Sequence record: KP869107
DNA from: Escherichia coli O157 typing phage 9
Strand: one strand, 5' to 3'
DNA length: 43,991 bases
The translations under genes and the position numbers were made by a program. Below are positions 1-39,374 of the stretch, piece after piece. The notes beneath the pieces were generated by a model. It saw nothing but the letters and a program-made list of their open reading frames with translations, made no database searches and was not told the origin of the DNA. How positions within the stretch are numbered: the stretch's first letter is position 1; each line of letters begins with the position of its first letter.

Positions 1-270
1 ACAAATTTGCCTAATTGCCCTGGCCCACCAAGAGGAACAAAGTTATTCATCACGGCGTTGTTTGCGCCGGGGTCATGATGCACAGAATCCCCGTTTTTTG
101 TCCTGCTCTCCCTCTCTTGGTTAAATGACTGGTTATATGACTGGTTCTGGATCCCGTTTTTGGGATCATTCAACATCCCGTTTTTGGGATCATTCAACAT
201 CCCGTTTTTGGGTATATTCCCGTTTTCGGTAACATTACCGTTTTCGGGTTCATTGACCCCCTCTCGGTTG
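1..270. repeat. Direct repeat, copy 1 (matches 39093-39374 except one 12-bp unit)
   Basis: Read directly: acaaatttgcctaattgccctggcc... recurs at 39093; copy 1 has 2 units of atgactggtt(a/c)t, copy 2 has 3. Confidence 0.95.
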
Positions 271-479
271 CCTTTAATGTTCCCGTTTTTGGTTATATTA
301 AGAGAGAAAACCCGCACTCTTTTTGTCGCTCCCTTTCTCTCTCCGGTATCTGAAATAAGCCCCATTTTCATGAGCGATATAAGCCCGGCCTGCACGGTTT
401 TTTTATTCAGGCAAGTGTCTTTAACGAGGCGTTCTATGCTGGGGTAGCAGAGGTTATATTCATCGGCTCTGTCAGCCAT
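1..479 (-). CDS. Replication initiator, lambda O-like (N-terminal HTH domain plus iteron-encoded linker); C-terminus lies beyond the window start
   Basis: Minus-strand translation from ATG at 479: MADRADEYNLCYPSIERLVKDTCLNKKTVQAGLISLMKMGLI... (replication-initiator HTH signature), continuing through the iterons as NG-rich repeats; sits upstream of the P-like gene in the circular map. Confidence 0.6.
   Translation of the reverse strand, partial: MADRADEYNLCYPSIERLVKDTCLNKKTVQAGLISLMKMGLISDTGERKGATKRVRVFSLNITKNGNIKGNREGVNEPENGNVTENGNIPKNGMLNDPKNGMLNDPKNGIQNQSYNQSFNQERESRTKNGDSVHHDPGANNAVMNNFVPLGGPGQLGKF
151..300. repeat. Origin-like iteron array (about 6 copies of a CCCGTTTT(T)GG core, two perfect 24-bp units) inside the O-like gene
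   Basis: atcccgtttttgggatcattcaac at 151-174 and 175-198, degenerate copies to about 300; same arrangement as the lambda ori within gene O. Confidence 0.6.
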
Positions 480-569
480 CGAGAGCAGTATGAGCTTTAA
501 TGATGAGCTGCCTGGATCTGTCTCCCAAGCCCAATCTGTTGCATGTCTGCTCATGATTAATCTCCGCTA

Positions 570-770
570 TCAGCTTGAGTGTTGTGGGGAGGAATTAATC
601 ATGATCTGCTTAATCTCTGCCCTGATGCGACGGTTTGATTCCATGGTGCACTCAACACAGTGTCCGTTGTAAACCCAGCGTTCACTGTCATGTCCGTGCT
701 TACATTGTTTTCCGGTGTAATAGCGTTTAAGTCCGCGCTTTGCGGCATCAATACGTGTAATGATTTCCAT
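570..770 (-). CDS. Hypothetical small Cys/His-rich protein in the cII-equivalent position
   Basis: ORF with C-x-H-G-H...H-C-x-x-C cluster; track start at 833 is TTG, first ATG at 770; lies between Cro-like gene and O-like gene. Confidence 0.35.
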   Translation of the reverse strand: MEIITRIDAAKRGLKRYYTGKQCKHGHDSERWVYNGHCVECTMESNRRIRAEIKQIMINSSPQHSS

Positions 771-875
771 GGTAAGCCCTGTTATTAGTATTGGGATTAC
801 GGTTATTTTGTGCTGACACAAAAAAAAGATCAACCATATTTGGTTTTTTATTACCTTTGAGGTACGAATAGATAT

Positions 876-899
876 GAAAAGACCGCCGGATGGCGGTCT
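876..899 (-). terminator. Rho-independent terminator after the Cro-like gene
   Basis: Hairpin agaccgcc-ggat-ggcggtct followed by T-tract on the minus strand. Confidence 0.5.
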
Positions 900-920
900 A
901 CAGAGGGTTGTGGCTGGATA

Positions 921-1151
921 TCATGAGTAGAAGAAGTATGCCAGTTCTGCTTTTGAGCGCAGCCATTGTCTTGTTTTACAGGCTTTAAAAAGCCCATTCA
1001 TCAATACCTTACCTGGCATTTTGCGCTTACCTGTTAAGTGAGTCTGGATATAGTGACTCGTCGTTCCGGCTTCCTGTGCGAAGGCTTCACGCTCATCCGG
1101 AGTAAGTGCAAGCCAGTGCTTTTTGAAATCGAAATGTCCGTTATCGCTCAT
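921..1151 (-). CDS. Cro/CII-like HTH regulator, divergent from the repressor gene
   Basis: 76 aa, ATG at 1151; HTH-like segment LTPDEREAFAQEAGTTSHYIQTHLTGKR; divergent from the repressor-like gene across a 154-bp operator region. Confidence 0.5.
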   Translation of the reverse strand: MSDNGHFDFKKHWLALTPDEREAFAQEAGTTSHYIQTHLTGKRKMPGKVLMNGLFKACKTRQWLRSKAELAYFFYS

Positions 1152-1187
1152 AGCTATTGCCTGATATTTATTTCAGATAATAAATAT

Positions 1188-1250
1188 TCACCCATAAGGT
1201 AACAAAAATCAAGGATAGTTACCTATGGGGTGCATTTACCTGTTGGGTAA
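1188..1250. promoter_or_regulatory. Operator cluster: three TTACC-N5-GGTAA-type sites between the divergent repressor and Cro-like genes
   Basis: Sites at 1188-1202 (TCACCcataaGGTAA), 1219-1233 (TTACCtatggGGTGC), 1236-1250 (TTACCtgttgGGTAA). Confidence 0.5.
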
Positions 1251-1305
1251 TATTGCTTTAAATTGAATCATCTACTGATTCATATATGAGGCGATTTTCC
1301 AGAAA

Positions 1306-1890
1306 ATGAAAAGTATCCAGGACGTCCGCAGGCAAAATCTCAACGACTTGATCGACCGTGAATTCAATGGTGTTCAGACGCGGATGGCAGAAAAACTTGG
1401 AACTCAGGCAAATCTGGTAAACCGCTGGGCTCTTGGCAAGAAGGTTATCGGCGACCAGGTTGCGCGAAAAATTGAAGCTGCCGCCAATAAACCCCGTAAC
1501 TGGCTTGATATCGATCGCTCGCTTTCTCAGGAAGGTTTTCAGCCTGTCGGACCAAGCGACATTGGTCAACTGGCGGCTCACAACCTGGAACGCTGGATGA
1601 GCGAAAGCCGCGACCTTTCAACGCAGGGAAAACTTCACCGCGCATCCGGCGTCGCCCAGGTAACAATCAGCCGCCTGTTAAACAATGAGGTCAGCGTTTC
1701 CATTTCCACCCTGGAGAATGTTGCATCCGCATTTGGGCGTCACGGATATGAATTACTGATTCACCCGCACGACCCCGCGACTATCAACTATGACCGCTCG
1801 CGCTACGCATTGTTACCTGAAACAGAGAAGGCAAAGATCGAAAGTTACATTGAATTTGTCATCAACCAGAACGAAAAAAACAAACAATAA
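1306..1890 (+). CDS. Phage repressor-like protein with two HTH domains and no peptidase S24 (autocleavage) domain
   Basis: 194 aa, ATG at 1306; two HTH-like segments (MAEKLGTQANLVNRW... and ASGVAQVTISRLLN...); no Ala-Gly/Ser-Lys cleavage module recognisable. Confidence 0.55.
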   Translation: MKSIQDVRRQNLNDLIDREFNGVQTRMAEKLGTQANLVNRWALGKKVIGDQVARKIEAAANKPRNWLDIDRSLSQEGFQPVGPSDIGQLAAHNLERWMSESRDLSTQGKLHRASGVAQVTISRLLNNEVSVSISTLENVASAFGRHGYELLIHPHDPATINYDRSRYALLPETEKAKIESYIEFVINQNEKNKQ

Positions 1891-1910
1891 AATCATATTT
1901 TTCAGTAAGT

Positions 1911-1935
1911 AAGCCGCCTTATGGCGGCTTTTTTA
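1911..1935 (+). terminator. Rho-independent terminator after the repressor gene
   Basis: aagccgcc-ttat-ggcggctt followed by ttttt. Confidence 0.55.
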
Positions 1936-1947
1936 TTGCCTATTCGA

Positions 1948-2024
1948 TTACCTAACGGGTAATTTTTTTAACTCATATCTATTGACATCAAACCAGATAC
2001 GCATAATTATTACCTCAACGGTAA
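1948..2024 (+). promoter_or_regulatory. Promoter/operator region of the recombination operon (TTGACA flanked by two perfect TTACC-N5-GGTAA sites)
   Basis: Sites at 1948-1962 and 2010-2024; TTGACA at 1983-1988; located just upstream of the 2044 and 2199 genes. Confidence 0.45.
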
Positions 2025-2043
2025 CAGACCGAGGTAACAAGTT

Positions 2044-2196
2044 ATGCAGTGGAAAATCATCAACGGTTGGTACTGCGTTACTGCATGCGGATTCATGAGC
2101 TGGAAGTTCCGCACCTTACAGGAAGGCATTAAGTGGGCTTTCGTCAGCAAAGAAGCTCGCGATGTAGCCAACGATAACGAGATATGGGAGGGCTGA
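2044..2196 (+). CDS. Hypothetical small protein (50 aa)
   Basis: ATG at 2044 preceded by gaggtaacaag; below the track's 60-aa cutoff, found by manual translation: MQWKIINGWYCVTACGFMSWKF... Confidence 0.3.
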   Translation: MQWKIINGWYCVTACGFMSWKFRTLQEGIKWAFVSKEARDVANDNEIWEG

Positions 2197-2198
2197 TA

Positions 2199-2498
2199 AT
2201 GAACGTTAATCAGCAGAAAAATCTTCAAAAAATCATGCTGGCATTCGACAAGGACTACCGCCTGTCAGAACAGCTATATGACCGACAAGTTGAACTGATT
2301 GAGAGCATCCGACTTCATCAACTGTCCTCAACTTTTGACGTTGTAACAGGCAAAGGCGTTCGTCAGGAAGTACTGGAGGCTGCTAAAGACAGCCCTGAGT
2401 TCGAAGAACTGATGGATGCCTATCGGCGAGAGGCAATGGCAATTATCGCCCGCTGGGATCTGGCGGATCAGCTTGATGGACAGAGGGACGCGGCATGA
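2199..2498 (+). CDS. Hypothetical protein (99 aa), translationally coupled to the downstream recombinase
   Basis: ATG at 2199 with GGGAGG RBS; stop overlaps the ATG of the next gene (ATGA). Confidence 0.45.
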   Translation: MNVNQQKNLQKIMLAFDKDYRLSEQLYDRQVELIESIRLHQLSSTFDVVTGKGVRQEVLEAAKDSPEFEELMDAYRREAMAIIARWDLADQLDGQRDAA

Positions 2499-4255
2499 AA
2501 CCGGGAATTTATTTCGACATCAGCAACGAAGACTACCACGCCGGTGACGGCGTGAGTAAGTCGCAACTGGACATGGTTGCCAAGAATCCGTCGCTTCTTA
2601 AATGGGTCCAGGCAGCACCAGAAGACGAAGAGAAAAAGTCTGCACTGGATATTGGAACCGCATTGCACTGTCTGCTTCTGGAGCCTGGAGAATTCGACAA
2701 ACGCTTCATTGTTTCACCGAAGTTCGATCGTCGGACGAAACAAGGTAAAGCTGACGAAGAAGCATTTCTTCGTGATGTAGCGGATATGGGGATTACGGTA
2801 CTTGATGCCGAGCAGTGGCGGAAACTGGAGCTGATGCGTGATAGCGCAATGGCTCACCCGGCGGCACGCTGGATGCTGGAAGCACCTGGTTTCTGCGAAG
2901 CATCAATGTACTGGAATGATGAAGATACTGGTGAGTTGTGCCGCATTCGTCCAGACAAATGGCTGAACGAGCACAACGTGATCGTCGACGTGAAAAAGGT
3001 TGCAGATATGGACCGTTTTGCACGCCACATCGAGGAATTCCGCTACCACGTGCAGGACGCAATGTACCGCGAAGGCGCAATGAGGGTTACTGGTCAGCCG
3101 CATGGTTTTTTCTTTCTTGCCGTGAGCGAAAGCATTGATTGTGGTCGGTATCCGGTACGCGTGTTCGAGCTGGATGCGCCGGATGTCGATGCCGGGCACG
3201 CTCTGTTCCGCCGGGATCTGAATACCTATCACGAATGCCGCATAAATGATGAATGGGGCGGTGTGGAAATCATTAAACGCCCTGAGTGGGCACGCAAAAC
3301 AGGATATGTACATATGAGCAACGACATCGCAAACATCAACGCACCAGTAGACACAGCAATCGCTGGAACTGCTGCAACTATTTTCAGCCCAGACGGCTTG
3401 AACCAACTGATGAAATTCGCCGAGGTAATGGCGCAAAGCCGCGTAACGGTACCGGCGCACCTCGCCGGGAAACCAGCTGATTGCATGGCCGTGGCAATGC
3501 AGGCTGCGCAGTGGGGAATGAACCCGTTTGCCGTGGCTCAGAAAACCCATGTTGTGAACGGCACGCTAGGTTATGAAGCCCAATTAGTAAACGCAGTTAT
3601 CTCAACGATGTCGCCAACAAAAGATCGCATCAACTACGAGTGGTTCGGGCCGTGGGAACGCGTGATCGGTAAGTTTGTTGAGAAAACATCCAAAAACGGC
3701 AATCCATATATCGCACCAGGCTGGACTCTAAAAGACGAAGAAGGCTGCGGTGTTCGCGTATGGGCAACCATGAAGGGCGAGGATCAACCTCGAGTGCTTG
3801 AGTTAATGCTGTCTCAAGCACAGGTAAGAAACTCCACACTTTGGGCCAGTGATCCGAAACAACAACTCGCATACCTTGCGACAAAACGCTGGTCTCGCTT
3901 GCACTGTCCTGACGTAATCATGGGCGTCTACACACCAGACGAATTACAGGAAACGGCACCGCGCGTTGAGCGAGACATTACTCCGCAAACGACCACTGCT
4001 GCGGGAATGAACAGTCTGATCAACGCTAAACCAGTGAAAAAGCCTGATGAGCAAACTCGTAAAGCGGATAGCCGTGATCCAGAAGAAATGCTGATGGCCT
4101 TTACCAGCGCAGCGATGAATTACAGCACTGTCTCCGAACTGGATAAGGCTTACAAATACATTGCACAAAAACTTTCAGATGATGACGAACTGCTGGCAAA
4201 AGCCACCGACGTTTACAGCGTTCGTCGGGAAGAATTAAACGAAACATCTATGTAA
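2495..4255 (+). CDS. Recombination protein: N-terminal PD-(D/E)XK exonuclease domain fused to a C-terminal RecT/Bet-family annealase domain
   Basis: 586 aa; N-term DIGTALHCLLLEPGEFDKRFIVSPKFDRRTKQGK (PD-(D/E)XK / exonuclease VIII-like signature); C-term MAVAMQAAQWGMNPFAVAQKTHVVNGTLGYEAQ (RecT/Bet-like); single uninterrupted ORF. Confidence 0.65.
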   Translation: MKPGIYFDISNEDYHAGDGVSKSQLDMVAKNPSLLKWVQAAPEDEEKKSALDIGTALHCLLLEPGEFDKRFIVSPKFDRRTKQGKADEEAFLRDVADMGITVLDAEQWRKLELMRDSAMAHPAARWMLEAPGFCEASMYWNDEDTGELCRIRPDKWLNEHNVIVDVKKVADMDRFARHIEEFRYHVQDAMYREGAMRVTGQPHGFFFLAVSESIDCGRYPVRVFELDAPDVDAGHALFRRDLNTYHECRINDEWGGVEIIKRPEWARKTGYVHMSNDIANINAPVDTAIAGTAATIFSPDGLNQLMKFAEVMAQSRVTVPAHLAGKPADCMAVAMQAAQWGMNPFAVAQKTHVVNGTLGYEAQLVNAVISTMSPTKDRINYEWFGPWERVIGKFVEKTSKNGNPYIAPGWTLKDEEGCGVRVWATMKGEDQPRVLELMLSQAQVRNSTLWASDPKQQLAYLATKRWSRLHCPDVIMGVYTPDELQETAPRVERDITPQTTTAAGMNSLINAKPVKKPDEQTRKADSRDPEEMLMAFTSAAMNYSTVSELDKAYKYIAQKLSDDDELLAKATDVYSVRREELNETSM

Positions 4256-4304
4256 CCACCACCGCGGCGCCACACGCGCCGCACTGCAACCAAGAGAGGT
4301 ATTT

Positions 4305-4553
4305 ATGAAAGGTGCATTAGGTAAGAAGGAACTCCTGGCGGTGGTGCCACTGTCATGGAGCACTATCGACCGTATGGAGCGCGCAGGGGAATTTCCTAAA
4401 CGCTGGTATATCACTGACAAACGCTGCGCATGGAACCGTGACGAAGTTGAGCGTTGGCTTGATGAACGTCAGGCAGCAAGCCCGGCAGAGTTCCAGGGTA
4501 AAAAACCTCCTGTTCAGCAACGTGTATATCGTCCCGTGAGCAACGCTGCATGA
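4305..4553 (+). CDS. AlpA/excisionase-like DNA-binding protein
   Basis: 82 aa, AGAGAGG RBS; MerR-like HTH pattern LLAVVPLSWSTIDRMERAGEFPKRWYI typical of AlpA/Xis. Confidence 0.6.
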   Translation: MKGALGKKELLAVVPLSWSTIDRMERAGEFPKRWYITDKRCAWNRDEVERWLDERQAASPAEFQGKKPPVQQRVYRPVSNAA

Positions 4554-4662
4554 GTGCGCTGCTAAGGCACTGGAGCAAATGGTCAGGATGGTACTTATTC
4601 CTGGCCTCTGTTTCAGCATGGCTTTATCTGCTGGCATTAATTTTCAGAGAGGGTTGGATTAA

Positions 4663-4962
4663 GTGAGAAAGTTAAGCCGACTTGAAAAATATCACATGAA
4701 TAAGGTTTCAATGCGCAGTCCGTCAAAGATTGTCGCCGTTACTCCTGCGGCGATAGAGATCGAAAAACGCGCGATTGAAAGAGAGAAAAAAGGGCAGTTC
4801 CGCATTGCCGCTCACCTTTGGCTTCAGTGTATGGATGTTGCTTCTGGTGATGTTGAACGTGCAAGGATCGCGGTTCGCAGGGACCAATGTATCACAAAAG
4901 GTAACGGCCTTCGCCGTGGCGACTATAGCGGCATAGGATGTTGTGGGGTGGTTTATGACTAA
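4663..4962 (+). CDS. Hypothetical protein (possible small regulator)
   Basis: ORF from the track; track start is GTG, alternative ATG at 4711 has an AAGG RBS; no family recognised with confidence. Confidence 0.35.
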   Translation: MRKLSRLEKYHMNKVSMRSPSKIVAVTPAAIEIEKRAIEREKKGQFRIAAHLWLQCMDVASGDVERARIAVRRDQCITKGNGLRRGDYSGIGCCGVVYD

Positions 4963-5605
4963 GAAATACACACTAATCTATGCAGATCCACCCTGGGTAT
5001 ACCGGGACAAAGCCGCAGATGGTAATCGCGGTGCCGGTTTTAAATATCCGGTTATGAGTGTGCTGGATATCTGCCGCCTTCCTGCGTGGGATTTGGCCGA
5101 TGAAAACTGTCTGTTGGCCATGTGGTGGGTGCCAACACAACCACTCGAAGCACTAAAAGTTGTTGAAGCCTGGGGATTTCGTCTGATGACGATGAAGGGC
5201 TTCACGTGGATAAAATGTGGTAGTCGACAACCAGATAAACTGGTTATGGGTATGGGGCACATGACTCGCGCCAATAGTGAAGATTGCCTGTTTGCGGTAA
5301 AGGGAAAACTACCTACGCGCATTAATGCAGGGATCGTTCAGTCATTTACCGCACCGCGGCTTGAGCATTCAAGAAAACCAGATGTCGTTCGTGAAAAACT
5401 TGTGCAATTGTTAGGCGATGTTTCTCGCATTGAACTGTTCGCCCGCCAGTCGTCTCATGGCTTCGATGTTTGGGGTAATCAGTGCGAAGACCCGGCAGTG
5501 CAACTACACCCTGGATACGCGTTGGATATTGGCGGATTAACAAATGCATTCAGCAATGCTCCGCTGTCACCAACAGACAACCAGGGGCAGGAGCGTGCAG
5601 CATGA
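4955..5605 (+). CDS. DNA N6-adenine methyltransferase (DPPW motif; MT-A70/phage Dam-like)
   Basis: YTLIYADPPWVYRD catalytic motif; start taken at ATG 4955 (track start 4943). Confidence 0.7.
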   Translation: MTKKYTLIYADPPWVYRDKAADGNRGAGFKYPVMSVLDICRLPAWDLADENCLLAMWWVPTQPLEALKVVEAWGFRLMTMKGFTWIKCGSRQPDKLVMGMGHMTRANSEDCLFAVKGKLPTRINAGIVQSFTAPRLEHSRKPDVVREKLVQLLGDVSRIELFARQSSHGFDVWGNQCEDPAVQLHPGYALDIGGLTNAFSNAPLSPTDNQGQERAA

Positions 5606-5796: not shown

Positions 5797-5799
5797 ACG

Positions 5800-7050
5800 T
5801 TATTCCCCCGCCATCCACTTCTCAAACTTCGACGGGGAGAACGGAATCAGATCCGTATGCTCCCCGTTAATCCAGGAATCAATCATATCGGACCACTGCT
5901 GCAACATGTAGGCGCGCTGTCTGGCGTATTCCGCTTTGTTATATACGGCGCGCACACCTTTCTGCTCATGTGCCAGAGCCTTTTCAATCCAGTCTGAAGG
6001 ATAACCAGCCTCATGCAACAACGTACTGGCTGTACGGCGCATATCGTGTACGGTGAAGCCCTGAATATGCTCACCATCTTCATTTATTATTTTCACCGTT
6101 CTGTCGATCAGAGAGTTCAGCGCGGCATTAGATAATGGCTTCCGGAAATTGTAACGACCAGGAACCAGATATTCACTTCCACCAGCGCACATCTGCAACC
6201 CGACCAATATATCCTGAGCCTGTTTAGGCAGGTAAATAACGTGCGCCCGGCTTCCCTTCATGCGGTCTGAAGGAATTGTCCATGTCCATTTTTTAAAATC
6301 TATTTCATCCCACGTTGCGTTGGTGAATTCGCCTTTACGAACCATAGTGATAAGCACCAGCTTTAAAGCCATTTTCATAGTGCCCATAGCACCAATGGCA
6401 TCCAGCGTGCGGAAGAACAGGCCAATTTCTTCTGGTGTCAGTGTTCGCTCTCGTGGTTTAAATATGGCGATAGACGAAGGTTTAATGTCAGCCGCAGGAT
6501 TAAACAAACCATGACCACGGTCATTGGCGTGACGGTATACGCTGCTGATGATCTCCCTGGCCTGCACTGCTGTTGCCCGACCACCGCGTTCGACAATCCT
6601 GTCACACAAATCACGAACCATCGATGTGGTAATTTCAGCCATCATTTTGTTGCCAAGAACCGGAAGTATGTCACGGTCGATCACTGCCTGCTTCATTGCG
6701 CGGGTACTTTCAGCCAGGATGACGTGTTTCATATAACTGTCGGTATGTACCGCAAACGTCTCGGCACCACGAATCTTTTTGATACCGTCACGTTTAGCCG
6801 CAGCCGGTGACTGGCCTGCTTTAAGCAGCTTCTTTGCAGCAATCAGTTCTTCTCGCGCTTCTGCCAGGCTGATACCGTCACGCCCATACTGCCCGATTAC
6901 CAGTGTTTCGCGGCGACCGTTGATACGGTAGTCATAGCGAAACGAGACCGTACCTGACGTAAGCACAGCTACATACAGCCCGTCACGATCGGAAACTTTG
7001 TACAGTTTGTCCTGTGGCTTGAGGTTTTTTAATTTTGTATCGGTAAGCAC
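5800..7050 (-). CDS. int: Tyrosine-type site-specific integrase (P4-like family)
   Basis: 416 aa; N-term LTDTKLKNLKP; C-terminal catalytic region HDMRRTASTLLHEAGY...AHEQKGVRAVYNKAEY; GTG start. Confidence 0.85.
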   Translation of the reverse strand: MLTDTKLKNLKPQDKLYKVSDRDGLYVAVLTSGTVSFRYDYRINGRRETLVIGQYGRDGISLAEAREELIAAKKLLKAGQSPAAAKRDGIKKIRGAETFAVHTDSYMKHVILAESTRAMKQAVIDRDILPVLGNKMMAEITTSMVRDLCDRIVERGGRATAVQAREIISSVYRHANDRGHGLFNPAADIKPSSIAIFKPRERTLTPEEIGLFFRTLDAIGAMGTMKMALKLVLITMVRKGEFTNATWDEIDFKKWTWTIPSDRMKGSRAHVIYLPKQAQDILVGLQMCAGGSEYLVPGRYNFRKPLSNAALNSLIDRTVKIINEDGEHIQGFTVHDMRRTASTLLHEAGYPSDWIEKALAHEQKGVRAVYNKAEYARQRAYMLQQWSDMIDSWINGEHTDLIPFSPSKFEKWMAGE

Positions 7051-7092
7051 AATTCACCCGTATAAAAACCATTTTCATGACGGTATGAGAGT

Positions 7093-7339
7093 ATACCTTT
7101 AAGGTAATACCGTCACCTGTACCGCCGAAAAATATGGTGTAGAGTGAATAGAAATGAATACATAAAAACAAAAACCCTCTGTAAAAACAGAGGGTTAAAT
7201 TAGTATCTGAATAGGAATGAGTTGCTATGAGTTAGCTGTTAATCATTCCCACTCAATTATTTACGGCAACCATAACCAATTGAGTGATAACATTTTTCCA
7301 AAACTTCATTTTTTTAGTACCGTTTTATATACCGTCACC
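7093..7339. promoter_or_regulatory. Candidate attP / integrase control region
   Basis: Noncoding stretch upstream of int with direct repeats taccgtcacc (7108-7117 and 7330-7339), 9-bp inverted repeat cactcaatt/aattgagtg (7250-7286), and a TTACC-type site at 7093-7107. Confidence 0.3.
7165..7196 (-). terminator. Rho-independent terminator after the lysis cassette
   Basis: Hairpin aaccctctg-taaaaa-cagagggtt with T-rich tract on the minus strand. Confidence 0.5.
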
Positions 7340-7367
7340 GGAAATCAGTACCATGAAAAATGCCATG

Positions 7368-13452: not shown

Positions 13453-13493
13453 GGAGTGCTTATATTTACCGCAAAGGTAAATATAAGCACTCC
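13453..13493. promoter_or_regulatory. 41-bp perfect palindrome (18-bp arms, 5-nt centre) containing TTACCgcaaaGGTAA
   Basis: ggagtgcttatatttacc-gcaaa-ggtaaatataagcactcc read directly. Confidence 0.6.
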
Positions 13494-13569
13494 TATTGTG
13501 CCATAGTAATCGGGCACTGGCAAAATCCAGTGCCGGGATTGGCGTCCCGGGTTACTAAAAGGCGCATTC

Positions 13570-13590
13570 ACCGCGCAAGCGGTTTTTTTA
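13570..13590 (+). terminator. Rho-independent terminator between the small ORF and the antirepressor gene
   Basis: accgc-gcaa-gcggt followed by ttttttt. Confidence 0.5.
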
Positions 13591-13746
13591 TGCGTATAGC
13601 ACGGTCACATTCGTATTATGGTGGGCTGTGTGGGGGCACCGAAAGGTGCGCCGGGTCCTTTTAGCCGGTTACGCCAACCCTGCACAGTTCACCACCAACC
13701 GATTGGCGTAGGTAGTGGTGATTAACCAGACTAAAAGGTAACCACT

Positions 13747-14331
13747 ATGACAGCTACAAAAAGCACGTCCATTTTTTCTTTCGAATCCCAAGCCGATATA
13801 CGGGTAATCGTCATTAATGGTGAGCCATGGTTTATCGCTTCAGATGTTTGTCGGGCTATAGGCATAGCAAACCATCGAGATGCTGTTCGAAAACTTGATG
13901 ATGATGAGAAGGGTGTCGCTTCAACCGACACCCCTGGCGGTGAGCAAGAATCGATCATCATCTCCGAGTCAGGACTCTACACACTGATCCTCCGCTGCCG
14001 CGATGCGGTGACACCAGGCACTATCCCCTACCGCTTTCGTAAATGGGTTACAGGTGAGGTTCTTCCTCAGATCCGCCGCACCGGAAGTTACATTAAAAAC
14101 TCGCTCCCGCAGGAAGAACGCATAAAGATGGTTGCCGACCAGGTAGCCAACGCCACGGCGTCAGCAGTAATGCAGGCGATGAAGATAGAGAACAAAACCT
14201 ACAGTGCCCCACTGAAGCCCGGCTACCGTAGCCTGATTCATTCGCCGTCTGGTGTTCTCGGCCTGACGGAGCACTCACTGCTGATGAACAGGACGACGGG
14301 CATGATGTATCAGGCGCGGCGGCGGAGCTGA
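13747..14331 (+). CDS. Bro-N domain protein / putative antirepressor
   Basis: 194 aa; N-term FESQADIRVIVINGEPWFIASDVCRAIGIANHRDAVRKL typical of Bro-N/antirepressor proteins. Confidence 0.65.
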   Translation: MTATKSTSIFSFESQADIRVIVINGEPWFIASDVCRAIGIANHRDAVRKLDDDEKGVASTDTPGGEQESIIISESGLYTLILRCRDAVTPGTIPYRFRKWVTGEVLPQIRRTGSYIKNSLPQEERIKMVADQVANATASAVMQAMKIENKTYSAPLKPGYRSLIHSPSGVLGLTEHSLLMNRTTGMMYQARRRS

Positions 14332-31047: not shown

Positions 31048-31124
31048 GTGGCATTAGCTCAGTTGGACAGAGCAACCGCCTTCTAAGCGGTTGGTCGCAG
31101 GTTCGAATCCTGCATGCCACGCCA
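31048..31124 (+). tRNA. tRNA-Arg (anticodon TCT)
   Basis: Cloverleaf read by eye: acceptor gtggcat/atgccac, D-loop tagctcagttgg, anticodon loop cttctaa, T-loop ggttcgaatcc, 3' CCA. Confidence 0.8.
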
Positions 31125-31699: not shown

Positions 31700-31715
31700 C
31701 ACCGTGACATGTCAC

Positions 31716-31789: not shown

Positions 31790-33265
31790 TTAAGCATAGG
31801 GATCGTAATCTGTAATGGCCTTGCCTTGCTGGTTCTGCTGCCCGGGAATTCGCAGACGCTTAGACACAGGGAACGCAAACGTCAGCAGTAGCGCATCGCC
31901 TTTACCCGGCGAACGCCCAAGCCGCTCCTTGATATCTTCCTTCGGTTCGATAACGATTTTACCGTCCACTCGAACTTTGTACTCTGCCGTCGACAGGTCG
32001 TCCGCTGTTTCCTGGTCATCCAGCATCCCGCCCAGCCTCAGCCATGTCTTGCATGAGTTGAACATCTCCCCACGCTTGTTGAGCATCTGCGGGTCAGTAG
32101 ACGCGCCACCGAACGGAACAAGTTGCCATGTACGACCCCAGCCGTCACCGATTGACTTCAGACCAGTTCCGTAACCGAAGTCGATGAACACTGCGTCAGC
32201 CTGGTACTGGTCTTCAAAGTCAGCGATACGCTTCGCCATAATCAGATCGTCAGTGGTCTTGTTGCCAGTCCACAGCACCTTACTGTGCAGCCCCTGCCGC
32301 AGGTATATCACAGCGTCATCAACGCCGGAGTATGCCGGGTCAACGCCGATTATCACCGGAGCATGTGCAACCTGCGCAGCGGTTACCACCCGTTTCATTG
32401 CCTCGTCAGTAAGGCCGGTAGGGATAAACTGCAATTCAGATGCATCCGGGAATATGCCGCGCACACGGATTTTAACGAAGTCGCTGCCTTCCCCGTAGTC
32501 ATCAACCCATTTCTGCAACTGCTGTTTGTTAGTGCCTTCCACCGTCCGGCTGTCAATCTGCGCAGTTTTCCAGCGGTGTTTATATTTGCGGAAACATTCG
32601 CGGAAACGCCCGGTGTTACGTGTAGGGTTTCCGAATGCCACCCAGATAATCTCAGTGTCTTCGTCCGTCAGCGCACCCTCTGCTACCTCCCACACCAGAT
32701 CGGCAATGTTGGATGCTTCGTCGAATACCACGATGATGCGTTTGCGCTCGTTGTGTAGTCCGGCGAATGCCTCAGTGTTGTGCTCAGACCAGGGGATTGC
32801 GTCAGCTCGCCACCGCTTGTCGTGCCCAGGGTCATTGCTGTACATCGCGGTAGCGGTACAGGTAAACCAGTCTTTCGTGATAGCAAGGTTCGACCACTTG
32901 ATAATTTCCGGCCAGGTCTTCGTTCGTAGCTGGTTGTCGGTGTTGGCGGTCACCACGACCTTACAATCCTCGCAAGTGGACATGCCCCAGTTGATCAGCA
33001 TTGAGATGAATGCGGATTTACCAATACCGTGACCCGAAGCGCGTGCCAGCATAAGCGGCTGATAGCGCGTCTCTGGATTCTGCAGGTGATCACGTATCTC
33101 TCGGAACGCATCAGCCTGCCACTGACGTGGACCGGTGGCATGTGCTAATTCAGTCCCCTCTTCCCCCCACGGGAACGCATAGAGGGCATAGCCAAGCGGA
33201 TCGTGAGTGAACCCTGCAATATCCTCGATCAACTGCTCTTCAGGAGATAACGCTGTATCTGTCAC
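31790..33265 (-). CDS. terL: Terminase large subunit
   Basis: 491 aa; Walker A-like ARASGHGIGKSAF; classic ATPase plus nuclease two-domain length; GTG start overlapping the TerS stop. Confidence 0.85.
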   Translation of the reverse strand: MTDTALSPEEQLIEDIAGFTHDPLGYALYAFPWGEEGTELAHATGPRQWQADAFREIRDHLQNPETRYQPLMLARASGHGIGKSAFISMLINWGMSTCEDCKVVVTANTDNQLRTKTWPEIIKWSNLAITKDWFTCTATAMYSNDPGHDKRWRADAIPWSEHNTEAFAGLHNERKRIIVVFDEASNIADLVWEVAEGALTDEDTEIIWVAFGNPTRNTGRFRECFRKYKHRWKTAQIDSRTVEGTNKQQLQKWVDDYGEGSDFVKIRVRGIFPDASELQFIPTGLTDEAMKRVVTAAQVAHAPVIIGVDPAYSGVDDAVIYLRQGLHSKVLWTGNKTTDDLIMAKRIADFEDQYQADAVFIDFGYGTGLKSIGDGWGRTWQLVPFGGASTDPQMLNKRGEMFNSCKTWLRLGGMLDDQETADDLSTAEYKVRVDGKIVIEPKEDIKERLGRSPGKGDALLLTFAFPVSKRLRIPGQQNQQGKAITDYDPYA

Positions 33266-33858
33266 TGATTACCATCCTGACGTTCTTTGAGTCGCTTCCT
33301 GGCTGCCGCTATGCGATCAGCAATTGTCACATTCACATTAACATCCAGGCGTTCTTTGAATGCGTTGACGTCGACGTGCTTACCAATCAGTTCGAGGTTC
33401 TTCACCTTGTCAGGCCATTTAATTTTTTTGAGGATTGTCTCTATCGAATCCTCGTTCATGTTCATGATGGTCGATGACAGATCAAAGCCACTAAGCGTAG
33501 TGCGCCAGATTTTCGGCCACTCACGGATTGGTTTAAGGCTCCCATCGTCGTTGAGGATATCGATCACGTCCATCTGGTCGATCTCCACCAGGCGCATGAG
33601 AACGTAATCAGCACTGACGCGCATTCGTTTGTTGCGCTCCTCCATCAACTCGGCAATCCGTTTTTGAATGCGTTCATCGCGCATCATGACACTGGCTTTA
33701 ACTGCCGCTGTATTTGGGGAGAATCCTGCGTTAATCGCTGCCTGAGTCTGGTTTTCAGGCGTTTTGATGTATGACTGGCAATAAGCCTCCTGCATTGCTG
33801 TGAGCGGCTTAAATTGCGTTGATTTGCGTTTATAGGTTTTAGGTTCAGCAGGCATCAT
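33262..33858 (-). CDS. terS: Terminase small subunit
   Basis: About 198 aa from ATG 33858 (GGTGG RBS); directly upstream of TerL. Confidence 0.6.
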   Translation of the reverse strand: MMPAEPKTYKRKSTQFKPLTAMQEAYCQSYIKTPENQTQAAINAGFSPNTAAVKASVMMRDERIQKRIAELMEERNKRMRVSADYVLMRLVEIDQMDVIDILNDDGSLKPIREWPKIWRTTLSGFDLSSTIMNMNEDSIETILKKIKWPDKVKNLELIGKHVDVNAFKERLDVNVNVTIADRIAAARKRLKERQDGNQ

Positions 33859-33862
33859 AACC

Positions 33863-33897
33863 ACCGTGGTAATAGTTACCGTTGTGGTAATAGTACC
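33863..33897. promoter_or_regulatory. Tandem 17-bp direct repeats containing GGTAATAG(T)TACC immediately upstream of terS
   Basis: ccgtggtaatagttacc / gttgtggtaatagtacc read directly. Confidence 0.4.
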
Positions 33898-33901
33898 ATG
33901 C

Positions 33902-33927
33902 AAAATAAAGCCGCCATAGTTGGCGGC
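33902..33927 (-). terminator. Rho-independent terminator between the early/middle genes and the late (terminase) operon
   Basis: gccgcca-tagt-tggcggc with T-rich tract on the minus strand. Confidence 0.5.
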
Positions 33928-33976
33928 AGTATTCAAAACCCATCAAATTCATCATGCATAATCTACTCGTAACATG

Positions 33977-34315
33977 TCACACTATTAATTTCGTTTCATG
34001 CCAGCCTTTAGTCACCCAGCATTGCGAGTCACCATTACACGGGCATGAATTAACTGGAACTCTCTCGCCGCACTTACCGCAACGTTTTCTGCTGATCGAT
34101 TTTATACGCCCGTGCACGCGTGCATCATCCTGGCGGATCAGTAACGCTATATACTCACCAAATTCGTAAGGCGCACGCCCGGGGCGACGCGTAGCACAGT
34201 TACGCTCCAGCATTTCAATTTCCTGAGCATCAAGCACAATTTCCAGCTTACGCACACCAGATGCAGCTTGTCTGGCTCTCTGAGCGGCTTTGCGCTCTGC
34301 TGCTGATTTAGCCAT
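33977..34315 (-). CDS. Small protein with RHH-like N-terminus and C-terminal Cys cluster (candidate regulator)
   Basis: ATG at 34315 with AAGGT RBS; RKLEIVLDAQEIEMLER (strand-helix pattern) and CGKCGERVPVNSCPC. Confidence 0.4.
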   Translation of the reverse strand: MAKSAAERKAAQRARQAASGVRKLEIVLDAQEIEMLERNCATRRPGRAPYEFGEYIALLIRQDDARVHGRIKSISRKRCGKCGERVPVNSCPCNGDSQCWVTKGWHETKLIV

Positions 34316-34589
34316 CAATATTTACCTTTATCGCGTATACCTTTACCGGTTTATCGCCGAAGTGCGGATGTGTGATTGTCTTGATTTCATATCCGTCATA
34401 CGGAACATCAATTCTACGGCTGGAATCGTCGCGCTTCGGATATCCCTTTGTGATAATCAGGCGGTCATACTCCCGGAACATAATTCGCTTATTCCAGTAG
34501 TCATTACACAGGCGATACTCTTCCGTTTTCTCTCCGCGAATCATGGCATCGAAGTATTCACCTTTGACGGCAAGTTGCAGGTTAGCCAC
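34308..34589 (-). CDS. ASCH-like domain protein
   Basis: 93 aa; AVKGEYFDAMIRGEKTEEYR...LIITKGY pattern; GTG start with GGAGG RBS. Confidence 0.45.
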   Translation of the reverse strand: MANLQLAVKGEYFDAMIRGEKTEEYRLCNDYWNKRIMFREYDRLIITKGYPKRDDSSRRIDVPYDGYEIKTITHPHFGDKPVKVYAIKVNIDG

Positions 34590-35283
34590 GGTTAACCTCC
34601 AGTTGTGGTGCTGCTTCTATAGCAGCCCTGTAACCAGCAGCATGACCGCGAAAGTTAGCAATCTCTGATAGCCACGCTTTAATCATGGCCTGAGTTGGCT
34701 CCTTCGGCACCATAACCCAACTATCCGGAGTTCCCGGAGAGTTGCCAGCCAGTCTACGCAACACAGCCTTAACCGCCTCAATACGGTCATCATCAACTTT
34801 TTCTACAATATTGGAATTTAAATACTTCGAAGCCTTGCTATGCCAATCGCTGGTTTTAGGGTCTTGTCCATCCATCAAACGCCAAGCTTCAGCGATTAAC
34901 TCATAGCCAGTAACAGTGGCTTCCTGCGCATCACCAATCAGTTGTGTGATCTCTCTTTCAAGCATGCTTAGAGCGTTAGGCATTGGTTTTTCTTCAGGTA
35001 CTACTGGCACCGGAGGGGCGGCATAAACAGGAATAACGTCCGCTTGCTCTTTATTGCTTTCATCCGTTAAAGCCCAGAATAATTTCCCGGCCGGATGTTT
35101 GAAAATATAAGCAACTGGCTCTGCTTCCAGCGATGCCAGCGTAATTTCGGCCAGCTTGAGGTGAATAACCGCCGCATCAGAAGCGCCCGGGACTCTTTCC
35201 ACCGCACCGCGAAGAACCTCAATATTCTTCTTAGCCTGCTCAATCAACTGCTCTTTGGTGAACTCTTTGGTAATAGTGGTCAT
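34582..35283 (-). CDS. Hypothetical protein
   Basis: 233 aa ORF, ATG start; no family recognised. Confidence 0.45.
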   Translation of the reverse strand: MTTITKEFTKEQLIEQAKKNIEVLRGAVERVPGASDAAVIHLKLAEITLASLEAEPVAYIFKHPAGKLFWALTDESNKEQADVIPVYAAPPVPVVPEEKPMPNALSMLEREITQLIGDAQEATVTGYELIAEAWRLMDGQDPKTSDWHSKASKYLNSNIVEKVDDDRIEAVKAVLRRLAGNSPGTPDSWVMVPKEPTQAMIKAWLSEIANFRGHAAGYRAAIEAAPQLEVNRG

Positions 35284-35488
35284 TTATTAATCCTCAAAAC
35301 TTTATGCCCGGGCGCAAAAGCACGCGTTTTGTCTTTGCTTATTCGCCAGCCATCCTTACGTGCCTCTTTTGCACAGCCAGCCCATGACGTACCGATATAC
35401 TCACCGAAGTCTGGCGTTTGATATTTACCATTTGTACACTGGCGACAATCACAGTAGAGATGCATGGTGTAACTTGCGGCAATAGCCA
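35280..35488 (-). CDS. Small Cys-rich hypothetical protein (69 aa)
   Basis: ATG at 35488 with AAGGAG RBS; CDCRQC...C cluster. Confidence 0.45.
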
Positions 35489-35490
35489 TA

Positions 35491-35682
35491 TCAGTCTCCT
35501 TTAGCGCGCAGGTGGTTTTTCCAGCGGTTTTGCGCCGCGCTGCGCTTATCTTTGATTCCCTCTCTGGCAATTCCAGAATATAAGTACAACACCACACGGC
35601 GATTGCTAACTCTCAACCACTGGCTGGGATAGCAACGTCTGTATACACGGGAAATAAGCATCTTTGCTTTACGGTTTTTCAT
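35491..35682 (-). CDS. Arginine-rich micro-protein (63 aa), paralogue of the upstream ORF
   Basis: MKNRKAKMLISRVYRR...; start overlaps the stop of the previous ORF (ATGA). Confidence 0.35.
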   Translation of the reverse strand: MKNRKAKMLISRVYRRCYPSQWLRVSNRRVVLYLYSGIAREGIKDKRSAAQNRWKNHLRAKGD

Positions 35683-35861
35683 CTTACTGCGTACCCTTTC
35701 TTCCGCCTGTTCTGTGACGCGCTGGGCTTTTTGCAACAACTGTGCCCCATCACCCCGCAACACCCCGTCAACCTCACTCGTCTGTTACTAATCCTCAACC
35801 AGCGCCAGACCCCAACACCGTTTCTGCGAGCTAACAGAATTTTTGCCTTACGGTTTTTCAT
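35679..35861 (-). CDS. Arginine-rich micro-protein (60 aa)
   Basis: MKNRKAKILLARRNGVGVWRWLRISNRRV...; start overlaps the stop of the previous ORF (ATGA). Confidence 0.35.
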   Translation of the reverse strand: MKNRKAKILLARRNGVGVWRWLRISNRRVRLTGCCGVMGHSCCKKPSASQNRRKKGYAVR

Positions 35862-35953
35862 CGTTTTGCTCTCCTGCGTTTCTTTGCTTCGCGTCGTGCA
35901 GCCGCAATACCGGTATGGCGGCGCTTTGGTGCAGGGATGATGTTGTCAGCCAT
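35858..35953 (-). CDS. Arginine-rich micro-ORF (31 aa)
   Basis: MADNIIPAPKRRHTGIAAARREAKKRRRAKR; stop overlaps the next ATG; weak RBS. Confidence 0.2.
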   Translation of the reverse strand: MADNIIPAPKRRHTGIAAARREAKKRRRAKR

Positions 35954-36033
35954 CAGGACATGCGGCTTTGCAATTAGCGCAGAAGCCCAAAATCGAGTCG
36001 GATACGGTAACAAGCCGATACATGCCACACGCA

Positions 36034-36732
36034 TTACTCACCTCCTTTGATGCGAATGCCAGCGGCGCGTGGCACATTAACTTCCACGATGCGCACAGTT
36101 GGTTTGTACATCTCAATCGCTGTCAGCCAGTCAGCGCCAGTCATGCGCTTTTCTGCATCGCCATTAGTCCACTTAACCGGTACACCAATAGCCTTCATCG
36201 CGATTTCTATTTCCCCGGCAATGGCGCTTTTTCCGCAACCAGTAAAACCAGAAACAACGACAAGAACTTCACCTTTGGCTGGCTTTATTTCCCGTGCTTC
36301 CAGTTCAGCAATACGCTTACTCCCATCCGAGATAACACCTTCGTAATACTCGCGTTGCTCGTTGAGTTTTGATTTTGCTTCCTCAAGCTCAACACGCAGT
36401 TTCCCTACCGTTAGCGCAATATCCTCGTTCTCCTGGTCACGGCGTTTGATGTATTGCTGGTTTCTTTCCTGTTCATCCAGCAGTGCCAGCACGGTAGCCG
36501 GGTTAGCCTCTGCTATGAATTCAGCGTTTGCATAAGCCTGAGCATCTGATTCAATCAGGCAGTTAACATGACATTCCGCAATCACACCACCGGGTTCTCC
36601 TTTCCATTTTTGGCAAACAAAAACTCCTGTTAAATTGCCGTGCTGGTTAACAGATGTATGCCCTACGATGTAGCTTCCTTTAGTTGCTTTCTCTGCCTTT
36701 TCACGCAGTGCCTGATAGTTAATTTGGGTCAC
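36034..36732 (-). CDS. Hypothetical protein (possibly Ead/Ea22-like, coiled-coil)
   Basis: 232 aa; GTG start with GGAGGA RBS; central coiled-coil-like region. Confidence 0.4.
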   Translation of the reverse strand: MTQINYQALREKAEKATKGSYIVGHTSVNQHGNLTGVFVCQKWKGEPGGVIAECHVNCLIESDAQAYANAEFIAEANPATVLALLDEQERNQQYIKRRDQENEDIALTVGKLRVELEEAKSKLNEQREYYEGVISDGSKRIAELEAREIKPAKGEVLVVVSGFTGCGKSAIAGEIEIAMKAIGVPVKWTNGDAEKRMTGADWLTAIEMYKPTVRIVEVNVPRAAGIRIKGGE

Positions 36733-36938
36733 TCTTCATCCTCCAAGTCGGCAACGGCGTCCATCACATCAGAACCGCGAATAACCTCAAAAGCACGGCA
36801 GGCCATTTGAAATACCAGTTGCTCTTGCGGATGCGGTGATTCCCAATATTTGAATCCAGGGCGATGCGCGTACCCCATCATTGAATAAAAATCACCAGCA
36901 AGCTTAATCGCGGCATCAACAAGCTCTCTGTTAGTCAT
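36729..36938 (-). CDS. Hypothetical small protein
   Basis: ATG at 36938 (track start 36986 would overlap the upstream gene); stop overlaps the next start (GTGA). Confidence 0.35.
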   Translation of the reverse strand: MTNRELVDAAIKLAGDFYSMMGYAHRPGFKYWESPHPQEQLVFQMACRAFEVIRGSDVMDAVADLEDEE

Positions 36939-36949
36939 TCTTTTTCCGC

Positions 36950-37525
36950 TCACTGGTTGCCTCCTTTGCGAATCTGTTCCGCCCATTCTTCTAGGGATTT
37001 CTCCGCATATTCACCGGACAGGCCATCAATCGGGTGTGGTTCATTAGCCAACTCTTCTTTCGCTGACAGAATCATGCGTGTAACGTCGAAAACTTCACGT
37101 AAAGACTTATTGATAAATCCGTGATTGAAAGCAGCAGCAAGACGGCTTGCGGTATAGTTAATCCCCTCGTTGCGTGCTTCCGCACGAATTTCAGCCAGGA
37201 AAGCATCGGTGGCTGGAATGGGCTTTTGTGGTGATATAGCAATGCGAATTGTCTCAAGGTCTGGATCTGTTTCCGCTGCTGGCACCTTGATATAACCCAT
37301 CTGCACCCCATTCATGATGAACCTGCGACGGTCATCACATATCGCCTTCAGCCCCGCATTCTCCGCCGCCATCGCATTAGCACGCACCAGTTGCACTTCC
37401 AGTTGCGTTGCCAAATCGCTGATCAGCTTTGCCACACTACGCATATCAACGGCACCACATTCTGCTTTCAGTTCCGAAGCCATCTCATGCCCGGCGGAAA
37501 CTAACCCTTTGATATTACTTTCCAT
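36950..37525 (-). CDS. Hypothetical protein
   Basis: 191 aa ORF, ATG start. Confidence 0.4.
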   Translation of the reverse strand: MESNIKGLVSAGHEMASELKAECGAVDMRSVAKLISDLATQLEVQLVRANAMAAENAGLKAICDDRRRFIMNGVQMGYIKVPAAETDPDLETIRIAISPQKPIPATDAFLAEIRAEARNEGINYTASRLAAAFNHGFINKSLREVFDVTRMILSAKEELANEPHPIDGLSGEYAEKSLEEWAEQIRKGGNQ

Positions 37526-37586
37526 CTTTACCCTCGCTTATCCACATAACTTATTGATTACATTGATAACTAAAAAGATCGTCGAT

Positions 37587-37931
37587 TCAGAACTCTTCGA
37601 TATTCCAGCCACCACCTGCTTTCTTTGGTTTAACCGTTACCCCGATGATTCGGAACGGATACTGATCTGCGGCGACTTTGGTTTTCACCCTGGCGTCGTC
37701 GGTCCAGAAACCTTTCACTTCGTGCAGTTCCATCTCTCCGGTGGCGAGCATCACAGCGAAATCGGGCGTATAAAACGTGTTGTCAGCCAGCCGCAGCTTG
37801 ATACCCTCGAACCGATACCAGGCGACTTCCCCTGCACGTTTACGCTGCTCAAGGTGCTGGCAATACGCAGATTCTGTTTTGTTCATCTGGCCTGTTTTGA
37901 GTCGACCAAGAGCCTGTATCTGTTTTCTCAT
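37587..37931 (-). CDS. DUF1064-like phage protein
   Basis: 114 aa; pattern EVAWYRFEGIKLRLADNTFYTPDFAV...HEVKG recalled as DUF1064, common in lambdoid early regions. Confidence 0.5.
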   Translation of the reverse strand: MRKQIQALGRLKTGQMNKTESAYCQHLEQRKRAGEVAWYRFEGIKLRLADNTFYTPDFAVMLATGEMELHEVKGFWTDDARVKTKVAADQYPFRIIGVTVKPKKAGGGWNIEEF

Positions 37932-37934
37932 GAT

Positions 37935-38011
37935 TTACCTCTAAGGTAATTAAAAACCACATAAGACACGAAATCAATAGATCTAAGAATATTTTGTTAC
38001 CCATTAGGTAA
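37935..38011. promoter_or_regulatory. Two perfect TTACC-N5-GGTAA sites between the P-like and DUF1064 genes
   Basis: 37935-37949 TTACCtctaaGGTAA; 37997-38011 TTACCcattaGGTAA. Confidence 0.45.
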
Positions 38012-38048
38012 CTATTGAGGCGTAAAAAAATGCGCTATCGCGCTGGTA

Positions 38049-38849
38049 TTACTTGATAAATCCTGCTGCCTTTCCTCGCCTGTATTCCTCCATCAGCCAC
38101 TGCGCCGGTGTTATTCCCCCCAGGGTGGCGGCGTTAGGCATGCACCCGAAACTTCGCCCTGGTGGATGGTAAACATCTCTCCCTGTGTCCGGAGGCGTAC
38201 TCATGGGTTCTGGCTTTGCCTGTATGCTGATCACCGGATCGGGTATCTGCTGTCCGGAAGCCACCTTTTTCGCCCAATCATCGAGCAGCCTGCGCGCGTG
38301 TTTCTCAACCTCAATCTCGCTAAGCTGGCGCTGATACATTGCACGGCGGGTATCACATACGACCCAGTACATAACCGGATGCCGCCACGGGAATCTTTCG
38401 GGACCACCAGGATATAAACTTTTTTCCTTGCTGTACCGGTGAAACTCCGCCATCACATCGTCAATGGTGACGCCAAGAACCATCTTGCTGTCTTTACACC
38501 ACTTGATGAATTGCCCTGGCGACGGCCAGAACGGAGACTCACTGGCGCGGGCGTGGCGCATACCAGCAGAAACCTGTTCACGGGTTCGGATCCCCCCTTC
38601 GGCAAACGCAGCAATCCACTGCTGTTTTGCAGCAACTTCCTGCTCTGGCGTCTTCAGGTTGGTTACCACTGCCGCCGGAAACAGTTGTTTCAGCTGTTTG
38701 AAAAGGGCATCAACAAGCCTCTCTGCTGACATGTTCACCACGTTGTCATTGTTGGTGTACTGATGCTCATAACCTGACATGCGAGAAAGGGCTTCTCCGT
38801 CACGGTTTTGTATCGCGGTAAAAACGTTGTTCACAAGAAATCCTCCCAT
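38049..38849 (-). CDS. Replication protein P-like (helicase loader)
   Basis: 266 aa; segment GIRTREQVSAGMRHARASESPFWPSPGQFIKWCKD aligns by eye with lambda P (GITTMEQVNAGMRVARRQNRPFLPSPGQFVAWCRE). Confidence 0.7.
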   Translation of the reverse strand: MGGFLVNNVFTAIQNRDGEALSRMSGYEHQYTNNDNVVNMSAERLVDALFKQLKQLFPAAVVTNLKTPEQEVAAKQQWIAAFAEGGIRTREQVSAGMRHARASESPFWPSPGQFIKWCKDSKMVLGVTIDDVMAEFHRYSKEKSLYPGGPERFPWRHPVMYWVVCDTRRAMYQRQLSEIEVEKHARRLLDDWAKKVASGQQIPDPVISIQAKPEPMSTPPDTGRDVYHPPGRSFGCMPNAATLGGITPAQWLMEEYRRGKAAGFIK

Positions 38850-39374
38850 GCTTCAGGGCTGTTCCAGTGCGGAACGTTGTTATCAGGTAATGTTGATTGC
38901 TTCTGTCTGCTAATCTGCAGCCGCCTTGCCAGCTTCTGCTCCCACTGTGCCTGATGGTATGCCTTACCCTCAGCCATCCAGTAAATTCTGAACTCTGCAA
39001 GTTCCTGTGCCGTTGGCAGACTGTCCAGGTAGATCCCCTGCAATGAGCTTTTCCGAAGAAAGTCATCTGATGGCTGCCATTGTTCATGCATGACAAATTT
39101 GCCTAATTGCCCTGGCCCACCAAGAGGAACAAAGTTATTCATCACGGCGTTGTTTGCGCCGGGGTCATGATGCACAGAATCCCCGTTTTTTGTCCTGCTC
39201 TCCCTCTCTTGGTTAAATGACTGGTTATATGACTGGTTATATGACTGGTTCTGGATCCCGTTTTTGGGATCATTCAACATCCCGTTTTTGGGATCATTCA
39301 ACATCCCGTTTTTGGGTATATTCCCGTTTTCGGTAACATTACCGTTTTCGGGTTCATTGACCCCCTCTCGGTTG
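38831..39374 (-). CDS. Replication initiator O-like, C-terminal part plus iteron-encoded linker; N-terminus lost in the N run
   Basis: Minus-strand frame open from the N run through the iterons (MLNDPKNG repeats, NQSY repeats) to a stop at 38831; overlaps the P-like start. Confidence 0.6.
39093..39374. repeat. Direct repeat, copy 2 (truncated by N run at 39375)
   Basis: Identical to 1-270 apart from an extra 12-bp tandem unit at 39229-39240. Confidence 0.95.

Follow-up and report, generated by a model that had tools for sequence, protein, structure and literature searches.

The sequence record of Escherichia coli O157 typing phage 9 very probably combines a phiV10 contig with assembler-doubled ends and a separate Stx2-prophage scaffold

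Record KP869107 holds 43,991 nucleotides under the name of Escherichia coli O157 typing phage 9; this whole stretch, at its full length, is here called the window, and we are concerned mainly with its first 39,374 positions, the two ends of which carry the same sequence. As judged by sequence identity, positions 1-39374 are the genome, already published, of phiV10, a temperate Uetakevirus podophage that also goes by the name of E. coli O157 typing phage 9/10. We consider it very likely that this part is a circular-closing phiV10 contig whose ends were doubled by the assembler, that the pieces behind it form a separate Stx2-prophage scaffold, and that the whole is an ordinary artefact. There is nothing biologically new in it: the phage is known, the end duplication is one of assembly and a probable contaminant has been appended.

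When positions 271-39374 are closed into a circle a molecule of 39,104 bp results, which, once rotated and reverse-complemented, has 0 mismatches to the phiV10 record DQ126339.2. A search with the first 25 kb likewise gave a 100% match to Escherichia phage phiV10 (DQ126339.2, 39,104 bp). Over its full length the unit lies well within the bound of at least 95% genome-wide nucleotide identity to the type genome that delimits the species Uetakevirus phiV10. Position 1 of the phiV10 record corresponds to window position 33976 and its position 39104 to window position 33977, just beyond the small terminase gene, and record KP869108.1 of E. coli O157 typing phage 10 (39,234 bp) is window 125-39358 exactly. 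The gene content of the phiV10 unit comprises an integrase, a repressor, a RecE/RecT fusion, an O-antigen acetyltransferase, a tail fibre and structural genes.

The first-pass annotation, made from the letters of the window, had described positions 39093-39374 as a repeat of 1-270, and self-BLAST returned this pair (E = 3e-125) as the single long repeat found. The tail copy (39093-39374) measures 282 bp and the head copy (1-270) 270 bp; in the alignment they match at all bases save one 12-bp insertion in the tail copy. This indel is one extra ATGACTGGTTAT unit, present in three copies in the tail and in two in the head, the units starting at positions 125 and 137 of the head and at relative positions 125, 137 and 149 of the tail. 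The contig thus ends with the sequence with which it begins, and once its ends are joined the locus is unbroken, just as in independent records. The annotated overlap of at least 270 bp does exist, but it should be read as an overlap up to the contig end, since the tail copy stops at 39374 because the contig ends there and a run of 100 N (39375-39474) comes next. The unit length of 39,092 bp given in the same annotation is right for the allele with two units and has to be replaced by 39,104 bp for the allele with three, such that the non-redundant genome is 39,104 bp (three units, as in phiV10) or 39,092 bp (two units). The O-like gene said to be split across the window start is indeed split: read on the minus strand, 554..1 and then 39092..38831 encode an uninterrupted protein of 271 amino acids, which is p43 of phiV10 (275 amino acids) minus one QSYN repeat, the 12-bp unit being in frame and adding or removing QSYN. 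In KP869108.1 this initiator is annotated, at 38707-39180 (window 38831-39304), as a truncated "dnaT primosomal protein 1" of 157 amino acids, because the linearised contig cuts the gene and its 130-bp end duplication was left untrimmed.

The positions at which the contig starts and stops were analysed by means of k-mers. Both alleles were built as circles and the contig ends were compared with the allele-specific k-mers at k = 60-200. Only at k = 147 is the first k-mer of the contig the first one specific for the two-unit allele and its last k-mer the last one specific for the three-unit allele, with no k-mer appearing twice; this single value therefore explains the positions of both base 1 and base 39374. 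The record of typing phage 10, KP869108, has the same sequence as the window but different ends: it starts at the first k-mer common to both alleles (window 125), has a perfect overlap of 130 bp and fits k = 131. The borders of the overlap follow assembly parameters and differ between the two assemblies (k = 147 versus k = 131), and biological ends would not shift from one assembly to another.

The most likely course of events is that the contig 1-39374 was assembled de novo from virion DNA and that the genome closed on itself in the assembly graph. With replication as a circle or concatemer followed by circularly permuted packaging, the assembler would meet no true end. If the sample contained two alleles, with two and three units of the 12-bp repeat beside the origin iterons described below, an unresolved bubble would remain, and the contig would be a walk from the two-unit arm through the rest of the circle to the three-unit arm, in which the same locus is written at each end. 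Velvet's bubble merging by default tolerates few gaps and would leave a 12-bp indel bubble unmerged. The source paper reports 150-bp paired-end reads and assembly by Velvet (PMC4429339), so that k = 147 and k = 131 are both feasible; the reads of the typing phage project are in the SRA under PRJNA252693 (PMC4429339).

The doubled ends could instead mark a real tandem duplication, i.e. the junction of head-to-tail copies in a tandem prophage or concatemer that differ by one 12-bp unit. The copies do differ by such a unit and concatemers do arise in phage replication; however, the second copy extends for 282 bp and breaks off at the contig end, where N follows, and this stop is the last allele-specific k-mer at k = 147, which the end of a real molecule would match by coincidence only. 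Moreover, a concatemer and a circle are indistinguishable by short reads. We regard a tandem duplication as quite improbable.

Headful packaging of circularly permuted DNA is most likely for phiV10 and would be the probable reason why the assembly closes. The small terminase belongs to Pfam Terminase_2, and the large terminase falls in the PHROG terminase family and is noted as PacB-like in the phiV10 annotation. Since the large terminase gave no Pfam match at E <= 0.01 and no sequence match to solved structures, the packaging type is unassignable by homology. A repeat of 270-282 bp at both contig ends is also what one would see if the virion chromosome had fixed direct repeats at its physical ends, as in T7; phiV10 is a podovirus, and "T7-like" is the term used for typing phages 9 and 10 in the source paper (PMC4429339). 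T7-like repeats have reproducible physical ends that are typically non-coding, whereas the repeat found here lies in the middle of the initiator coding sequence and its borders vary by assembly, being 1/39374 in the window and 125/39358 in KP869108 for an identical sequence, both as predicted by k-mer arithmetic. Furthermore, the curated phiV10 record is non-redundant and begins at the terminase genes, the related Enterobacter phage Tyrion (KX231829) is circularly permuted according to polymerase chain reaction (Tyrion genome announcement), and phiV10 is an epsilon15-like Uetakevirus rather than a relative of T7. A fixed terminal repeat is thus very improbable, more so than a tandem duplication.

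Some points weigh against doubled ends made by the assembler from a permuted genome. The range of k stated for Velvet is 90-120 (PMC4429339), versus the implied 147 and 131, and both the assembler and its k value are presumed here from the fit. What can be said on circular closure, on allele frequency and on the coverage of the Stx2 pieces is inferred from the assembled sequence. A scaffolding or repeat-resolution step must be assumed, as a simple de Bruijn graph leaves both arms unmerged with the common node. Finally, the literature searched yielded no direct determination of the phiV10 virion termini, and nothing for the ends of epsilon15 either.

The window had further been proposed to be a circular or terminally redundant contig and not an integrated prophage with attL and attR. 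This is supported by the fact that the virion-derived phiV10 genome is 100% identical, that attP is single and that the lysogen is permuted. The integrase does lie 5.8 kb inside rather than at an end, on the minus strand at 5800-7050. Comparison with lysogen sequences, which had been suggested as the way to locate attP, was successful: the attP core ATTGAGTGGGAATGATT, reported for phiV10, epsilon15 and ZX5 (PMC9782041), is found only at 7241-7257, and the lysogen genome is opened at the same core. E. coli EC21Z-151 (CP101197) carries a 97%-identical relative in its chromosome, inserted between yfgI and guaA and bordered on either side by the core. In this lysogen the alignment of a probe spanning the attP of the window is split there, while that of a probe spanning the 39092/1 joint is contiguous, within a gene for a "DnaT-like" initiator. 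Since attP is single and internal and the joint is contiguous in the lysogen, the window is permuted relative to the integrated form. The claim that bacterial flanks are absent stands inasmuch as no host genes occur anywhere in the window, but it has to be amended, as 39475-43991 carries fragments of a 933W-type Stx2 phage.

That the window is an integrated prophage stripped of its host flanks by omission or trimming has a negligible probability. The phage is temperate, with integrase, attP and repressor present, and relatives occur as prophages in many E. coli genomes; nevertheless, the gene order of the window is permuted, and its opening falls within the initiator gene, which is uninterrupted in the lysogen. 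A prophage would show host genes on both sides, but the left end lies in a phage gene and the right end passes through 100 N into Stx2-phage DNA. Neither is the att core doubled at the ends with the integrase adjoining one of them: the core is single and internal, and the integrase is kilobases away from the end.

The two alleles of the 12-bp repeat were compared with relatives in IMG/VR. Two units are present in 119 of the 120 relatives with flanking sequence, and only phiV10 has three. Nearly all relatives (113/114) differ from the head copy 1-270 at one or more other positions; the only one identical over 1-270, L123, is a different phage with 96% identity over 37512-39092. Because nearly all relatives differ elsewhere in the 270 bp and L123 is a different phage, the two-unit arm looks, by its sequence, like a slip variant of phiV10 itself, and its origin in a phiV10 relative is unlikely, with 1 of 114 identical over this stretch. 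A source in the contaminating Stx2 phage was rejected, as megablast with the initiator gene identified no Stx phage sharing it and only 16 Uetakevirus-type records.

It is possible, although we lean away from it, that the two-unit allele is no real subpopulation but a slippage artefact of library or sequencing, or derives from a phiV10-like prophage resident in the propagating strain. Tandem repeats slip readily in libraries based on PCR, the two-unit allele is the common one in relatives, and L123 shows that a relative can be identical to window 1-270. On the other hand, the allele outlasted the coverage filtering of the assembler, the other relatives differ from the head copy elsewhere in the 270 bp, and the window holds no further contigs from a relative of phiV10. 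In addition, typing phage 10 was sequenced from a separately made library (Nextera, GAII), and the start of its contig coincides exactly with the branch point of the alleles, which suggests the same branch in a second sample. That the typing-phage stocks are truly heteroplasmic, with two-unit and three-unit genomes, and that phages 9 and 10 have identical genomes and differ by Stx2 contamination, is jointly a tentative conclusion that we find nearly as probable as its contrary.

The first 39,374 positions are joined by the 100-N spacer to five pieces that match 933W exactly and keep its order and orientation; the genes represented are L0115 (hypothetical), L0114 (portal) and L0113 (large terminase). 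The N runs between the pieces (173, 139, 222 and 242) are approximations of the true 933W gaps (135, 30, 194 and 297); paired-end scaffolding of thinly covered sequence gives such estimates. Induced-prophage contamination is the most likely source of 39475-43991: a 933W-type prophage would have been induced from the O157:H7 propagating strain, its DNA co-extracted, and a low-coverage scaffold appended to the record. For typing phage 15, propagation was described to have induced temperate phages of the strain, the DNA of which was co-extracted (PMC4429339). The same paper gives typing phages 9 and 10 genomes of 40-45 kb that differ only by three hypothetical genes in phage 9, and suggests these three extra genes as the cause of the different lytic spectra (PMC4429339). 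The "three extra genes" of typing phage 9 are probably these Stx2-phage fragments.

Pfam assigns to the rebuilt initiator HTH_36 at the N-terminus and a DnaT DNA-binding domain at the C-terminus, and PHROG classes it as a replication initiation protein. HTH_36 and DnaT were its only Pfam domains, with no match to Phage_rep_O, the lambda O family, and its matches to PHROG "O-like" families are weak. A lambda-type module has at least four iterons inside the initiator gene and a homologue of lambda P downstream of it; six iteron copies and a lambda P homologue were found in these places. By analogy with lambda, whose ori lies inside gene O, the iterons at 151-303 are a putative replication origin. 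No marked A+T-rich stretch like the unwinding region of a lambda-type origin was found beside them, the richest 40-bp window (at 269-313) reaching 67.5% A+T. The iterons are also translated, on the minus strand, within the initiator, where they give the repeated peptides NDPKNGML (twice) and ENGN/KNGN, and so constraints on the DNA repeats and on the protein sequence are coupled in this linker. The coordinates of these and the preceding features are collected in Table 1.

Table 1. Features of the window, with strand as reported.
Feature	Position	Strand	Remarks
Head copy of doubled contig end	1..270	.	Two-unit allele; equals the set of two-unit-specific k-mers at k = 147
Tail copy of doubled contig end	39093..39374	.	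Three-unit allele as in the phiV10 record; equals the three-unit-specific k-mers at k = 147
12-bp tandem array ATGACTGGTTAT, two-unit version	118..146	.	In frame, encodes QSYN repeats
12-bp tandem array ATGACTGGTTAT, three-unit version	39210-39250
O-like replication initiator (phiV10 p43), N-terminal and middle part	1..554	-	Runs off the window start
Same initiator, C-terminal part and stop codon	38831..39092	-	Contiguous with 1-554 on circularising
Lambda P-type replication protein gene	38049..38849	-	PF06992, E = 1.5e-56; immediately downstream of the initiator
Six iteron-like repeats	151..303	.	Core CCCGTTTT[T/C]GG; copies one and two are perfect 24-mers ATCCCGTTTTTGGGATCATTCAAC; located in the open reading frame of the initiator
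Tyrosine integrase, P4-type	5800..7050	-
attP core ATTGAGTGGGAATGATT	7241..7257	-	Single copy in the window; lysogens open here, 3' end of guaA
Terminase genes	31790..33936	-	Small 33262-33936, large 31790-33265
100-N spacer	39375..39474	.	Stands between the phiV10 contig and unrelated sequence; does not show that the two are physically linked
Five 933W/Sakai-type Stx2 phage pieces	39475..43991	-	39475-40362, 40536-41091, 41231-42336, 42559-43115, 43358-43991

Some further observations concern the phiV10 unit at large. The plus-strand stretch 2495-4255 is a single open reading frame of 586 amino acids, a RecE/RecT fusion in the phiV10 annotation; at the same locus the lysogen CP101197 has two separate genes, for a PD-(D/E)XK nuclease and RecT. 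ARAGORN and Rfam identify a tRNA-Arg with anticodon TCT at 31048-31124 (plus strand), which is annotated in KP869108 and not in DQ126339.2. Two more Rfam matches above the gathering score, both on the plus strand, are the Hfq-binding RNA isrK (13514-13589, 75.9 bits) and the C4 antisense RNA (13614-13699, 77.7 bits). They lie directly upstream of a Bro-N anti-repressor gene (13747-14331) and are unannotated in DQ126339.2 and KP869108; by analogy, the layout of isrK/C4 and anti-repressor resembles the immI-type antisense control of the antirepressor in P1 and P7. Just upstream of this region, 13453-13493 is a 41-bp imperfect palindrome with 88% self-complementarity that could be an operator or a terminator.

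As regards record hygiene, the terminal overlap should be trimmed, and the last 4.5 kb should not be counted as part of phiV10. The published explanation for the host ranges of phages 9 and 10 would then rest on contaminating portal and terminase fragments of an Stx2 phage; should the genomes of the two typing phages be truly identical, their different lytic spectra would suggest a cause outside the genome, host-induced modification for example. Should the stocks be truly heteroplasmic, the two-unit form of nearly all wild relatives would coexist with the three-unit form of the reference, abutting the origin iterons. The k-mer test, which asks whether one k fits both contig ends, is a reusable and read-free way to tell assembler duplication from a biological terminal repeat.

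When compared with known systems, the window has the same genes, attP, integrase, oac gene and tail fibre as phiV10 (DQ126339.2 / NC_007804.2), but it is the reverse complement and is opened in the initiator gene, whereas the phiV10 record is opened at the terminase genes. The end duplication amounts to 270/282 bp in the window, 130 bp in KP869108 and none in the phiV10 record, and the window differs further by the two-unit allele at its head and an appended, gapped Stx2-phage scaffold of 4.5 kb. As in the usual end duplication of circular genomes in de Bruijn assembly, identical ends rebuild a contiguous locus and the overlap length is set by k and varies by assembly; in contrast, the usual overlap is k-1 or k, and here it is about 2k, each end being a different arm with its flanks, since the break falls on a 12-bp indel bubble that was left unresolved.

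Tyrion aligns with 75% of the first 25 kb of the window at a nucleotide identity of about 80%, but infects another host and is another species, so that the evidence on its packaging is not direct proof for phiV10. The likeness to the Stx2 phages 933W and VT2-Sakai (Traversvirus) is exact in 39475-43991 over L0115, the portal and the large terminase, whereas only about 3.7 kb of a genome of about 61 kb are present; four N runs interrupt them, and their linkage to the phiV10 contig is not demonstrable. Finally, the replication module resembles the lambda O/ori/P arrangement in that iterons lie inside the open reading frame of an initiator with an N-terminal helix-turn-helix and a gene of the lambda P family follows directly downstream; it differs in that the phiV10 initiator combines HTH_36 with a DnaT-like C-terminal domain, outside the lambda O family of Pfam, and in that its origin is a putative one.

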